Both the position numbers and the translations under genes were made by a program. From Candidatus Krumholzibacteriia bacterium (GTDB taxonomy: Bacteria; Krumholzibacteriota; Krumholzibacteriia; JAJRXK01), in the NCBI GenBank assembly GCA_041484665.1, contig JBGPIA010000011.1, positions 64,001 through 128,000 of the forward strand: a DNA stretch of 64,000 nt, read 5' to 3'. Within the stretch, counting starts at the first letter, position 1. Every line of letters starts with the position of its first letter. Positions 29,321-38,496 of the stretch are shown here, piece by piece. The notes beneath the pieces were generated by a model. The model did not search any database. It saw only the letters and a program-made list of their open reading frames with translations, and had not been told where the DNA came from.

Positions 29321-30550
29321 ATGGAGTTCGACATCTTCTTCTCGATCAGCCAGACGCCCGTCAGGGGATTCACGCCCGACGAAGCCACCATGTTCCGCAA
29401 TTTTTTCGCGCAGGTCGAGGCTGCGGACGCTCTGGGTTTCGGCGTGGCCTGGATTGCGGAGTCGCATTACTCCAGCGAGGTGCAGAAGCTGCACCGCAAA
29501 CCGGTGATCCCCCATTGGCAGGGGGAGGTCGGCCTGAATGTGGATTTCCTGCAGCTTTCCCACCATATCTTCCAGCGCACGCGGCGCATCGAGACCGGCT
29601 CGGCGGTGATGAACATCGTGTGCAACGGCGGCCCGCTGGCCGCGGCCGAGCGCGTAGCGGCATTCCTCGCGCTGCACGGGCTGAATCCGCAGGAGCACCG
29701 GCGTATCCACGTCGGGTTCTCGGCCGGGCGCTTCGACTTCATGAACCGTGTCACCGGCGTCGACGCGCGTGACCGGATCGAGGAGGCCGCCTGGCCGGTG
29801 GTGAAGGGCAGGATCTTCGCCGAGGCGGCTGAGATCTTCGTCCGGCTGCTGCGTGGTGAGACGCTGTCCAGCGACGACGTGCGCGCTCCGGTGCTGGCGC
29901 GCGCCGAGTTCCGCACCGACCCCGACTGGCAGCGCCTGCGCGAGCTGGCGGGCGCGGCCGCGCGCGACAGCATCCCCATGGCGCGGCGCTGGGTATTCGA
30001 GCCCGTGAAGATCGTCCCGCAGCAATGGCGGCGCGATCTGCTGCAGCTGGTCGCTGGCTCGCACGATCCGCAGGTGCAGGAGGACCTCAACCAGTTCCTC
30101 CCCGTACAGGTCTTCAATCTGTCGATCACCCCTGCGGAGGTGATCGAGGATACACACCGGCGCATGTCCAGGGCCTATCATCTTTCGGGCGGACCGTGGC
30201 GGCGCAGCTACATGCCGCGCACGGTGTTCGTGTTCGTGAACGAGGAAGCGGGGCTGACGCCGCAGGGCCGTCGTGAGGCGGCGCGCGACGAGGCGCGCGC
30301 GGCGCTGGGCGCGTACTGGACGGCGCTGGAGGGGACGCTCGATCCCAAGAAGGTCGAGGGCGCGGCCGACAACGCCCTGATCGGCAACGCGCAGGACCTC
30401 GTCGAGCAGATCGTGGCCCGCTTCCACGCCGAGGATCGTCTCATGCTGTGGTTCGATTTCTTCAACCACGACAACGCGCGCGTGATCCGCAACATGCAGG
30501 TCTTCATGGAGCAGGTGGCCCCCCGCGTCCGGGGCGCGGTGCGGGCGTAG
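29321..30550 (+). CDS. LLM class (luciferase-like) flavin-dependent monooxygenase, 409 aa
   Basis: QVEAADALGFGVAWIAESH, TRRIETGSAV, AAERVA, ALIGNAQDLVEQI, FMEQVAPRV. Confidence 0.88.
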   Translation: MEFDIFFSISQTPVRGFTPDEATMFRNFFAQVEAADALGFGVAWIAESHYSSEVQKLHRKPVIPHWQGEVGLNVDFLQLSHHIFQRTRRIETGSAVMNIVCNGGPLAAAERVAAFLALHGLNPQEHRRIHVGFSAGRFDFMNRVTGVDARDRIEEAAWPVVKGRIFAEAAEIFVRLLRGETLSSDDVRAPVLARAEFRTDPDWQRLRELAGAAARDSIPMARRWVFEPVKIVPQQWRRDLLQLVAGSHDPQVQEDLNQFLPVQVFNLSITPAEVIEDTHRRMSRAYHLSGGPWRRSYMPRTVFVFVNEEAGLTPQGRREAARDEARAALGAYWTALEGTLDPKKVEGAADNALIGNAQDLVEQIVARFHAEDRLMLWFDFFNHDNARVIRNMQVFMEQVAPRVRGAVRA

Positions 30551-30552
30551 GC

Positions 30553-31041
30553 GACCCGCGCTTCTGGCGCATCGAGTCGCCGACGCCACGCGACCATATC
30601 CATCACTTCAGGCTGACCGATGCCATGCAACTCGATGCGTGGCTGGCGAAGCTCGTGCGGGAGGCCAACGCTGGGGTTGCAACAGGGTCCTCAGGGAGAC
30701 GAACTGCGCTCCCCAACACAGAAAGCGCCGGCGGCTCGGCGCGGCCGCCCCAGGCGGTCGTGATCGACCTCGAGCGTATCCCGTCGGCTGGCCGTGACGT
30801 GGCGCTGTGGTTGCGTTATCAGCGGGGCACGCGCTCGGTGCCGATCGTGTTCGTGGACGGCGAGCCCGAAAAGCTGGCGCGGTCGCAGGCCGACCTGCAC
30901 CGGCGCTTCGCCGGGGCCGCGCGCTCGCTGGTGGAGGGCGGGGCGCTCTGGATCCCGTGGCGCAAGCAGGCCTCAGGCGCCGGCGCCGATCTCACCCAGG
31001 CCGCCGTCCGTGCCTTCGGACTGGCGGCCGGACGCGACTGA
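30553..31041 (+). pseudogene. Mosaic of gene remnants: DUF5655-like C-terminal fragment, then an internally deleted receiver-like/DUF3052-like fragment
   Basis: PRFWRIESPTPRDHIHHFRL...QLDAWL; AVVIDLERIPSAGRDVA...VPIVFVDGEPEK; GALWIPWRKQASG..DLTQAAVRAFGL, stopping before the expected VD.K..A motif. No credible start. Confidence 0.45.
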
Positions 31042-35930: not shown

Positions 35931-37000
35931 CCGCCCGGGCGAAGGGCCGCATCGTGGCGGGGTTCCTGGCTCCGCATCCGCCCCATCTGGTCTACGGCGA
36001 GAACCCGCCGCAGAACGAGCCGCGCTCGGAGGGCGGCTGGGAGAACCTGCGCTGGGGCTACGAGCGAGCGCGGGCGAGCCTGCGCAGCAAGCCCTACGAC
36101 GTCATCATCGTCCACTCGCCCCACTGGAAGACCGTGATTGGCACGCACGTGCTGGGCGTGCCGCACTTCGAAGGCCTGTCGGTCGACCCCGTCTTCCCCA
36201 ACCTGTTCCGGTATCACTACAAGCTCGACGTCGATGTCGAGCTGGCCGAGGCGATCCACCACGAGGGGTGCGACGCCGGCCTGGTGATGAAGATGATGCG
36301 CAACCCTCGCTTCCGCGTGGACTATGGCACGCTCACCTGCACGCACCTGATCAACCCGGCGTGGGACACGCCCATCGTCGGCCTATCGTCCGGCTCCGCG
36401 TTCCACTATTTCTCCAACGACGTGGGCCAGCGCGAGATGATCGCCCTGGGGCAGGCGACGCGCCGCGCCGTCGAGCGCACCGGGCGCCGCGCCATCCTGC
36501 TGGCCAGCTGCAGCCTCAGCCACCGCCACTTCACCGAAGAGCCGCCCACGCCAGAGGATATGTCCCACGAGCACATCTACCACCATGGTCAGTACCTGTG
36601 GGACATGCGGCTGCTGGATCTGATGCGCGCGGGCCGCACGCGCCAGCTCATGGACGAGCTGCCCGACTTCATCGATCAAACGGCGAGCGAGGCCAAGGAA
36701 GGCAGCCTGAGCTGGCTGATTGCCGCACTGGACTACCCCGCCTACCCGGCGACGGTCCACGGGTACGGCACCGTGATCGGGACGGGCAACGCCGTGGTGG
36801 AGTGGTCACCCCCCGAGGTGGGGGCGAACACCGCGCCCGCGCGTGCGCTGGGCTCAGCACAGCAGCAGCCCGCCCACCGCCAGCCGGCTGGCCCCAGCGC
36901 GCTGGGCCGGCAGCCCGCGGGTGGGCAGCCCACCGGTGGGCAGCCTGCGGGTGCGCCGCCCTCCGGTCGGGGAACCCGGCGTCAGGGGGCCCGGAAGTGA
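35927..37000 (+). CDS. amnB: 2-aminophenol 1,6-dioxygenase beta (catalytic) subunit-like, LigB-type extradiol dioxygenase
   Basis: [69 protein letters not shown] closely match AmnB/CnbCb as I recall them. Confidence 0.9.
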
Positions 37001-38496
37001 GTGGCGGCGCGCCCGCCCCGGGCAGCGGTACGTCGCCCGTCGTGCGCGGCTACATCGTGCCCGGTAAGCCGCACCCGCTGTTGGCGGCCGACTGCTCGCC
37101 GGCCTGGTCCAGACTGCGCGACGGGTTCGCGCGCGTGCGCGAAGAGATCGCTCGCACCGACGCCGACCTGCTCGTCCTGTACAGCACGCAGTGGATTAGC
37201 GTGATCGGCCACCAGATCCAGGCCGACCCGCAACCCGAGTGGGTGCTGGTCGACCAGGAGTGGCACGAGCTGGGTGAGATGCCCTACCGCTTCCGCATCG
37301 ACGCCGAGTACGGTAAGGCCTACGAGGCGTCCGCCCGCGCCCGGGGTCTGCACGCCCGCACGGTGGCCTACCACGGCTTCCCCATCGACACCGGCACCGT
37401 GGTGGCGCTCCAGCTGCTCAACCCCGACAATCGCCTGCCCGCGAGCGTCGTCTCGTGCAACATGTACGCCGACCGCGGCGAGACGCTGGTGCTGGGCAAG
37501 GCTGCCGCCGACGCCTTGCGCACCACGGGCAAACGCGCCATCGCGGTTGCCGTGACGGCCCTCTCCAACCGCATGTTCACCGAGCCGATCGACCCGCTGC
37601 AGGATCGTATCTCGTCACTGCGGGACGACGAGTGGAACCGCAAGCTCCTCGAGATCCTCGGCGAGGGTCGCCTGGAGGACGTCTCGCAGCTCACCCGCGA
37701 GTTCAGCGCGCAAGCCACCGCCGATCAGAAGATGAAGGCGATCTGGTGGCTGGCGGCCGTGATGGGCCAGCACAACCGCTACGAGGGGCGGGTCGTCGCG
37801 TACGAGCCGGTGTGGGGGACGGGGGCGGCGATCGTGGGCCTGACGCCCTCGGCGAAGGCGGCGGCCGATCTCGAGTTCGACGAGGAGGACGTGGAGGTTT
37901 TCCACGGCGATCGCAACGTGCTCGCCCCGGCAGAGGGCGCGCCGGTCGCCGACGGCGAATCCGCGGCCGACAGCGCGCCCGCAGCGGCCAGCGCGACCGT
38001 GGCGGCCGGAGGACCCATGGTTGCGAGCGCGCCTACGGCTGCCAGCGACCTCGCGGCCGCGAGCGGGACCACCTCGGCCGCCGAGGTGATCCGCGCGCCG
38101 GGCGCCCCGCGGCCCGTGGGAGCCTATCCACACGCGCGCCGCGTGGGCGATCTGCTGTTCCTGTCGGGCATCGGACCGCGCGATCCGCAGACCGATGCCA
38201 TCCCCGGCGGCCCCGCGCGAGACGCGCAGGCGCGCCGCCTGCCGTACGACATCGAGGCGCAGACGCGCGCCGCCGTCCACAACGTGCAGACGATCCTCCA
38301 GGCTGCCGGCTCGTCTCTGGACCGGGTGCTCGACGTCACGGTGTTTCTGATCGACATGGAGCGGGATTTCGCTGCGTTCAATCGCGTCTATGCCGAGTTG
38401 TTGGGTCACGCCGGCGCCACGCGCACGACGGTGGCCGTCGACGCGCTGCCGACGCCGATCGCCGTCGAGTTGAAGGTGATCGCGGCAGCGCGGTGA
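36997..38496 (+). CDS. amnA: Fusion of a 2-aminophenol 1,6-dioxygenase alpha subunit-like domain and a RidA-family 2-aminomuconate deaminase, 499 aa
   Basis: GTG start overlaps the amnB stop. N-terminal [33 protein letters not shown]; Ala-rich linker; C-terminal [23 protein letters not shown]...[16 protein letters not shown]. Confidence 0.85.

Follow-up and report, generated by a model that had tools for sequence, protein, structure and literature searches.

A conserved group of genes for aromatic catabolism lies in a 64,000-nucleotide stretch (hereafter, the window) of the genome of a Candidatus Krumholzibacteriia bacterium (assembly GCA_041484665.1, contig JBGPIA010000011.1, positions 64,001 to 128,000). 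Its core consists of a luciferase-like flavin monooxygenase (LLM), an asparaginase-II-like hydrolase, the 2-aminomuconate semialdehyde dehydrogenase AmnC, the 2-aminophenol dioxygenase subunit AmnB, and a fused AmnA–AmnD protein. This operon is probably an uncharacterised variant of the kynurenine pathway, which bypasses KMO, kynureninase (KynU), HaaO, and ACMSD. That the cluster belongs to tryptophan catabolism is very likely. For the chemistry proposed in the middle of the route, a Baeyer–Villiger step by the LLM followed by aspartyl hydrolysis, our estimate is a probability of about 0.6.

In the proposed route, tryptophan 2,3-dioxygenase (TDO, kynA) would convert tryptophan into N-formylkynurenine, and KynB, encoded on another contig (C8), would convert the latter into kynurenine; both assignments are made by close homology. 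TDO and KynB end at kynurenine, and AmnAB, AmnC, and AmnD start at 2-aminophenol, which leaves the LLM and the hydrolase as candidates to bridge the two compounds. The LLM, supplied with FMNH2 by a separate reductase, may insert an oxygen atom between the aromatic ring and the keto group of kynurenine with migration of the aryl group. The product would be the beta-aspartyl ester of 2-aminophenol, perhaps rearranged to N4-(2-hydroxyphenyl)asparagine by an O-to-N shift, a type of rearrangement that belongs to general chemistry. Through a beta-aspartyl-Ser intermediate, the hydrolase may then release L-aspartate and 2-aminophenol; since kynurenine is an aryl ketone with an aspartyl skeleton, either the ester or the N-substituted asparagine suits an enzyme of the asparaginase type. 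The following three steps are again predicted by close homology: AmnAB would open 2-aminophenol to 2-aminomuconate semialdehyde, AmnC would oxidise this to 2-aminomuconate, and the fused AmnD would yield 2-oxo-3-hexenedioate and ammonia. In relatives, the last step is probably carried out by an atypical short-chain dehydrogenase/reductase (SDR), which would form 2-oxoadipate in most of them, and by a DmpH/DmpE pair in a few.

Organization and conservation of the cluster

All genes of the run lie on the + strand, as the first-pass annotation had described. The LLM gene (29321..30550; 409 aa; PF00296, E 1.4e-7) is divergent. The hydrolase gene (32945..34219; PF06089, E 2.8e-41) encodes a Class 3 protein of the ReAV fold; its start codon is uncertain, and the conserved part extends from 33125 to 34219. 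It is followed by the genes for an AmnC-like aldehyde dehydrogenase (ALDH; 34386..35930), whose top PDB matches are 2-aminomuconate semialdehyde dehydrogenases (AMSDH; E 1.5e-152), for AmnB, the beta (catalytic) subunit of 2-aminophenol 1,6-dioxygenase (35927..37000; 3VSG_B, E 1.4e-121), and for the alpha subunit AmnA fused to an AmnD-like Rid-family 2-aminomuconate deaminase (36997..38496; 7TXY_A, E 4e-58; 6IZH, E 3.8e-26). The last three genes are joined by 4-bp overlaps, and the gaps upstream of these genes measure 75–580 bp. A promoter and terminator scan gave no signal above that of shuffled sequence. The TDO gene, which had been placed 13 kb upstream on the same strand, was found at 14902..16008 (+; PF03301, E 2.4e-58), 13.3 kb from the LLM gene and separated from it by unrelated genes. 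A family scan of 53 ORFs, which are part of the full ORF list of the window, gave no match for KynB, KMO, KynU, HaaO, ACMSD, or nitroreductase families, which agrees with the reported absence of the canonical middle genes and of a nitroreductase from the window.

Two sets of loci were compared with the window: the best 80 amnB loci from species-representative genomes and 80 metagenome LLM loci, which together make up 160 related loci. The submitter labels of the amnB loci include Eisenbacteria, Latescibacterota, Planctomycetota, Myxococcota, Bdellovibrionota, and Acidobacteriota, and in two cases archaea, some of the labels being apparently wrong. By these labels, the core is conserved in at least six phyla of bacteria, and its carriers are for the most part uncultured. 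Among the 80 amnB loci, many of which end at contig ends, AmnA was found in 76, the Rid domain in 65, the ALDH in 50, the hydrolase in 47, the LLM in 36, and TDO in 14. When at least 8 kb of upstream sequence was available, the LLM or the hydrolase was present in 34 of 46 amnB loci. Similarly, the hydrolase was found in all 73 metagenome LLM loci with more than 400 bp downstream, and in both sets together the two genes are directly adjacent in 99 of 109 loci, with the hydrolase gene second.

The cluster is also linked to the first genes of tryptophan degradation. In 45 of 60 eligible loci, a KynB gene is located no more than 1.5 kb beyond amnD, and the distance between the TDO and LLM genes is at most 6 kb in 20 of the 47 TDO-bearing amnB genomes. 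In one genome of the same family as the source (G070, locus L183), the genes for TDO, SDR, LLM, hydrolase, ALDH, AmnB, and AmnA/D are contiguous, with the exception of about 450 bp that precede the ALDH gene; in another (G067, L182), TDO lies about 2.3 kb from the SDR. This linkage of TDO and KynB to the cluster recurs under several phylum labels. The association of the LLM and the hydrolase with amnAB, which had been noticed in the window, therefore holds in other genomes and extends to TDO and kynB. A TrmB-type regulator was observed near the end of the cluster in two same-family genomes (L182:87-905 and L184:1946-2782).

The same neighbourhoods bear on a different reading, in which the amn module serves external o-aminophenols derived from nitroarenes or benzoxazolinones, the hydrolase is no more than an asparaginase, and TDO and KynB are linked only incidentally. 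The distance of TDO from the cluster in the window, the location of KynB on another contig, and the proximity of AmnB to enzymes from degraders of nitro- and chloronitrobenzene would all fit such a function. However, TDO and KynB adjoin the cluster across several phyla, and KynU is found in none of the 33 TDO genomes that carry the LLM. In addition, neither a nitroreductase nor a mutase cluster was recurrent among the neighbours shared by at least four loci, of which some but not all clusters were scanned; nitroreductase and hydroxylaminobenzene mutase were likewise missing from the scanned window ORFs, no genome-wide search for them having been made. A dedication of the module to external aminophenols is thus highly improbable.

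Distribution of tryptophan and kynurenine genes

The source genome (5.45 Mb, 93.65% complete) contains a kynB gene on contig C8 (58323-58757), whose product matches kynurenine formamidases of the PDB (E 7e-52). Genes of the KynU, KMO, and ACMSD families were not found in this genome, the only one in which ACMSD was searched. For 3-hydroxyanthranilate dioxygenase (3-HAO), one weak match was obtained (E 1.4e-6, in an open frame of 122 aa), at an E-value far from the approximately 1e-60 of true HaaOs. A full canonical kynurenine pathway elsewhere in the genome, which would have spoken against the first-pass annotation, was therefore not found, TDO and KynB being its only members detected.

The co-occurrence profile proposed in that annotation was established for 50 of the 80 amnB genomes, chosen by hand (32 with the LLM in the amnB locus, 4 with the hydrolase only, and 14 with neither). 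The LLM is encoded in all 50, including all 18 whose amnB locus had none, and TDO in 47; KynU was detected in a single genome (G050). HaaO was found in none of the 50, vs. 9 of 10 KynU-bearing control genomes, and KMO (searched with a query verified as KMO) in none of 57 LLM genomes, vs. 9 of 10 controls.

An even sample of 251 genomes, from the phylum of genome G010 (labelled Myxococcota), was chosen as a less biased test. It contains the LLM in 35 genomes, AmnB in 36, KynU in 42, and TDO in 113. The LLM and AmnB occur together in 34 genomes (5.0 expected), and the LLM and KynU in none (5.9 expected). TDO is present in 33 of the 35 LLM genomes; when only the 113 TDO genomes are considered, 33 carry the LLM, 40 carry KynU, and none carries both. 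In the phylum of the window itself, the LLM was found in 10 of 155 genomes, from two families. Taken with the linkage of the cluster, the lack of KMO, KynU, HaaO, and ACMSD supports the earlier proposal that the LLM and the hydrolase replace the middle steps of the pathway.

The supply of quinolinate was considered as a purpose of the route and set aside: nadA and nadC are both present in the source genome, and nadA in four of five genomes. In the single-contig genome G002, to which locus L010 belongs, nadC was found and nadA was not.

The ring-cleavage module

The activity of AmnAB on 2-aminophenol is predicted by close homology. The alpha and beta LigB-fold subunits are encoded by adjacent genes, as in 2-aminophenol 1,6-dioxygenase AmnAB, and AmnB matches the solved 2-aminophenol dioxygenase chains 3VSG_B, 8IHG_A, and 7TXY_B with E-values from 1e-111 to 1e-121. 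Residues H17, H66, Y133, H199, and E255 are invariant in 31 of 31 homologs; their equivalents in 3VSG (H13, H62, Y129, H195, and E251) are presumably the iron ligands and the acid/base residues. The ALDH retains the residues that match R120, E268, C302, and R464 of AMSDH, which we take to be functional in that enzyme. Both parts of the AmnA–AmnD protein are adjacent in 74 related loci, and in 73 of these they are fused in a single open frame. In the window, AmnB ends in a low-complexity tail of about 60 aa (36821-37000), rich in Gln, Pro, and Gly, whose codon GC resembles that of non-coding DNA and which lies outside the part conserved in homologs.

The active site of AmnB is also where a second reading of the middle steps can be examined. 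The LLM could be a kynurenine 3-hydroxylase, in which case AmnAB would open 3-hydroxykynurenine, and the hydrolase would strip the aspartyl group by C–C hydrolysis in a role similar to that of ACMSD. This scheme fits the same linkage and the same absence of KMO, KynU, HaaO, and ACMSD, it also passes through a beta-aspartyl enzyme, and it comes closest to the 3-hydroxykynurenine idea of the first-pass annotation. A loop beside the AmnB active site, moreover, is variable across the clade and differs in the window (SSGSAFHY). However, a larger substrate would need a larger pocket, of which there is no sign: AmnB can be aligned without gaps to the solved 2-aminophenol dioxygenases, and 8 of 31 rows nearly keep their SNNSPYY loop. 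Two further points count against this scheme: to our knowledge, no enzyme of the ReAV fold is a precedent for C–C hydrolysis, and few LLMs hydroxylate aromatic compounds. We consider it unlikely; a substrate derived from 3-hydroxykynurenine, as first suggested, is less likely than plain 2-aminophenol formed from kynurenine.

The luciferase-like monooxygenase

The LLM is the proposed kynurenine Baeyer–Villiger oxygenase. Its predicted structure (pLDDT 91) is a luciferase-type TIM barrel, and the nearest folds are those of luciferase (LuxA), RslO1, and a type II Baeyer–Villiger monooxygenase (BVMO), with 12–23% identity and Z-scores of 26–30; the type II enzyme, 3,6-diketocamphane monooxygenase (4UWM), matches the model at Z 26.4. 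Identity among 38 LLM homologs ranges from 47 to 80%. His49, which lies in what we take to be the motif carrying the luciferase histidine, is invariant in all of them. These 38 are the rows kept of 42 planned for the alignment: L061 and L081 were left out on account of stops, and L062 and L087 were left out untested. In the ESM Atlas, matches to the LLM were confined to unnamed or automatically named LLM clusters.

An F420 ligase was not found in the source genome, so the LLM is more likely an FMN oxygenase, and a role for it as an F420-dependent reductase was rejected on the same ground. That an LLM may function as a Baeyer–Villiger enzyme has a precedent in an LLM acting on progesterone, according to extracts of one report (PMC12239570). 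No description was found of an aryl-ketone amino acid as a substrate of a type II BVMO or LLM. In a group of metagenome loci, the LLM gene is preceded, at a distance of about 1.6 kb, by a flavin reductase gene (L117:7718-8398 and eight other loci), whose product is a candidate partner in that group.

The asparaginase-like hydrolase

The hydrolase is proposed to act on a beta-aspartyl ester or anilide. Its model adopts the ReAIV/ReAV fold (Foldseek E 5e-17, TM about 0.66, 21–26% identity). Seven residues (R62, S63, K66, S92, H144, D192, and K254) show no variation across all 39 homologs and match Arg47, the tandems Ser48–Lys51 and Ser80–Lys263, Asp187, and His139 of ReAV. In that enzyme, the extracts of PMC12292245 describe a beta-acyl-enzyme formed at Ser48, an alpha-carboxylate held by Arg47, and two Ser-Lys tandems. 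An ortholog of the hydrolase was found in four of five further LLM genomes and in none of five KynU genomes. Other enzymes of the asparaginase type are also available: PF01112 is represented in five of five cluster genomes, with two matches in the source genome.

Proposed exit from the route after ring cleavage

Where there is room upstream of the LLM gene, an SDR gene is present, mostly directly before the LLM gene, in 22 of 29 loci from genomes and in 70 of 71 from metagenomes; 42 of the 50 amnB genomes encode this SDR. Structures related to it in the PDB are SDRs with no specific function given. In genome G205 (L188:258-6630), a canonical cluster of the order SDR-ALDH-Rid-HaaO-ACMSD-KynB-KynU contains the same SDR, with 50% identity; since the SDR occurs in a canonical cluster, it would act after the two routes converge. 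An ortholog was present in only one of the 10 KynU controls. A DmpH/DmpE-like pair was found in 5 of 51 genomes, beside the cluster in three of them. The SDR is missing from four of these five genomes vs. 4 of the 45 others, a comparison in which three of the five are labelled Bdellovibrionota and are not independent. The SDR probably reduces 2-oxo-3-hexenedioate or 2-aminomuconate to 2-oxoadipate. Its presence in the canonical G205 cluster and its frequent absence where DmpH/DmpE is found disfavour the alternative of an LLM partner or of an enzyme acting upstream.

Evidence against the proposed route

Several observations weigh against the proposed route, one of which concerns the zinc site of the hydrolase. 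The three ReAV ligands Cys135, Lys138, and Cys189 are all lost in the window copy (S140, L143, and D194), and, according to extracts of PMC11024299, either of the substitutions C135A and C189A abolishes the activity of ReAV. With the loss of a single Cys having this effect in ReAV, the Cys-less hydrolase must bind its substrate differently. Among 118 locus copies, Cys and Glu occupy the first two positions in 105, and the site is Cys/Glu/Cys in most homologs; Cys/Lys/Cys occurs in 3 copies and Ser/x/Asp in 10, as in the window copy and three same-family genomes. Decay of the hydrolase into a pseudogene would account for the missing ligands but is disfavoured, because the Cys-less form makes up one clade (14 of 60 rows, SH-aLRT 98, in a quick tree that included the motif columns). 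The change at this site (window 33542-33706) is common to the same-family genomes and to a group labelled Holophagae or Bdellovibrionota, in which the hydrolase gene follows amnA.

Other points arise from gene distribution. Where at least 8 kb of downstream sequence is available, amnB is found in only 11 of 34 metagenome loci of the LLM, 39 of the 113 TDO genomes lack the LLM, AmnB, and KynU alike, and one LLM genome (G041) has no ortholog of the hydrolase. G050 (L169, L181) combines KynU with a TDO-SDR-LLM route, HaaO and KMO not being found there. In addition, the genomes used for co-occurrence are related and incomplete, so Fisher p-values overstate the association. As to the oxygenase, the fold of the model is uninformative on the reaction, its closest structures being luciferases of at most 23% identity, and we know of no sequence motif diagnostic of ketone-to-ester oxygen insertion. 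The single flavin reductase gene of the source genome (PF01613) is unlinked, on contig C1, with none in the window cluster, and PF01613 occurs near the LLM in just 9 of 80 metagenome loci. Finally, no exit from the route is visible in the source assembly, because no ortholog of the SDR (best matches 30–34%) and no match for TIGR03218, DmpH, DmpE, or DmpF was found, and DmpG gave weak partial matches only; the exit is unassembled, lost, or different in this organism.

Some of these points would be accommodated by another order of the middle steps. The LLM might act on N-formylkynurenine, on a transaminated or hydrolysed derivative, or on anthranilate by decarboxylating hydroxylation, and the hydrolase would then have a function other than freeing aspartate from an aryl ester or anilide. 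The order of steps cannot be read from gene content, and KynB could follow the LLM; the altered zinc site hints at a changed specificity, and G050 carries KynU beside the LLM route. However, anthranilate as a substrate requires KynU, encoded in just 1 of the 50 genomes, and the invariant Arg and Ser-Lys set of the hydrolase indicates an alpha-amino acid acylated at its beta-carboxyl. Such a rearranged middle is quite unlikely, and the Baeyer–Villiger step on kynurenine followed by aspartyl hydrolysis remains the preferred chemistry.

Other genes in the window

Between the LLM and hydrolase genes lie four ORFs on the + strand, all considered passengers. The first, a short and probably degenerate ORF (30616..31041), has no Pfam or NCBIfam match; a 116-aa paralog encoded on contig C10 (L189:2703-3050) shares 41% identity with its product across 59 aa, and its GC content by codon position is atypical. 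The second (31131..31565) had been labelled GGCT; the ORF is present, and its label as a GGCT/AIG2-like protein is weak, the one match being to AIG2_2 (E 5e-4, below the family cut-off). The other two encode DinB-family proteins (31670..32179, with paralogs elsewhere in the genome, and 32255..32764; both PF12867). GGCT and DinB were found in none of the 160 related loci and none of 18 further loci (E<1e-3), and the LLM gene abuts the hydrolase gene in three same-family genomes (L182-L184). They are therefore interpreted as lineage-specific insertions, and their membership in the route was rejected.

Three other regions of the window may be mentioned. A match to the UshA-like (seleno)protein family NF041198 (18655-20064; E 8.7e-45, score under the cut-off of 275) follows a two-component system. 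A Phd/YefM antitoxin gene, with a downstream ORF of 145 aa that has no Pfam match at E 1e-5 (21915-22651), likely forms a type II toxin–antitoxin pair. The genes at 43889-51064 encode a ferredoxin/pyridine nucleotide-disulphide oxidoreductase and, after it, two large multiheme cytochromes c, one of which has MtrC/MtrF-like domains.

Significance and comparison with known systems

The 2-aminophenol pathway is known from nitrobenzene degraders and from ARO microcompartments; according to the extracts of PMC10470539, it is not known from what upstream source ARO loci obtain 2-aminophenol. The route proposed here offers a testable answer to the question of the natural substrate source of 2-aminophenol dioxygenases, which these extracts leave open for ARO loci. 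In addition, such a route would account for what is missing in genomes with TDO and KynB and without kynureninase, it would recover the side chain as aspartate with no step dependent on pyridoxal phosphate, and new chemistry would be expected in two large families that are poorly characterised. No published description of such a route was found in CC-licensed PMC papers and bioRxiv, supplements excluded. A cultured carrier with a complete genome, listed as Sulfidibacter corallicola M133 (L037, L180), makes the route testable.

More generally, there is about an even chance that the cluster represents a separate branch of tryptophan catabolism, found in several bacterial phyla and in archaeal-labelled records. 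This branch would include three new activities: a kynurenine Baeyer–Villiger oxygenase, an aspartyl-aminophenol hydrolase that has the Class 3 asparaginase fold and is zinc-free in the window, and an SDR corresponding in bacteria to the oxalocrotonate reductase that leads to 2-oxoadipate. 2-Aminophenol 1,6-dioxygenase would then have its native function in this branch, and nitroarene degraders would have recruited the enzyme from there.

Compared with the Amn/Cnb pathway (3VSG, 8IHG) and the ARO locus (7TXY), the cluster has homologs of AmnAB, AmnC, and AmnD with the catalytic residues retained. It differs from the Amn/Cnb pathway in the AmnA–AmnD fusion, in that AmnE–H were not found in the source genome, and in its linkage to TDO, KynB, LLM, hydrolase, and SDR. 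Unlike the ARO microcompartment, it has no shell family among the scanned window ORFs or recurrent neighbours, and AmnB has no N-terminal extension, as its residue 6 aligns to residue 31 of 7TXY_B.

Type II BVMOs and other LLMs (4UWM, LuxA, RslO1, and the progesterone LLM in the extracts of PMC12239570) share the TIM-barrel fold and the His49 motif with the window LLM, which differs by several insertions and an identity of at most 23%, and for which no characterised member was found. Similarly, the hydrolase shares with the Class 3 asparaginases ReAV and ReAIV of Rhizobium etli the fold, the Arg, the two Ser-Lys tandems, the Asp, and the His, whereas its low identity, its altered zinc site, and the fixation of its gene in a catabolic operon set it apart.

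With the canonical kynurenine pathway, as in G205, the proposed route has in common the entry through TDO and KynB and an exit through AMSDH and a Rid deaminase, G205 also having the same SDR. In contrast, the side chain would leave as aspartate instead of alanine and CO2, no precursor of quinolinate would be formed, and the LLM, the hydrolase, and AmnAB would stand in for KMO, KynU, HaaO, and ACMSD.

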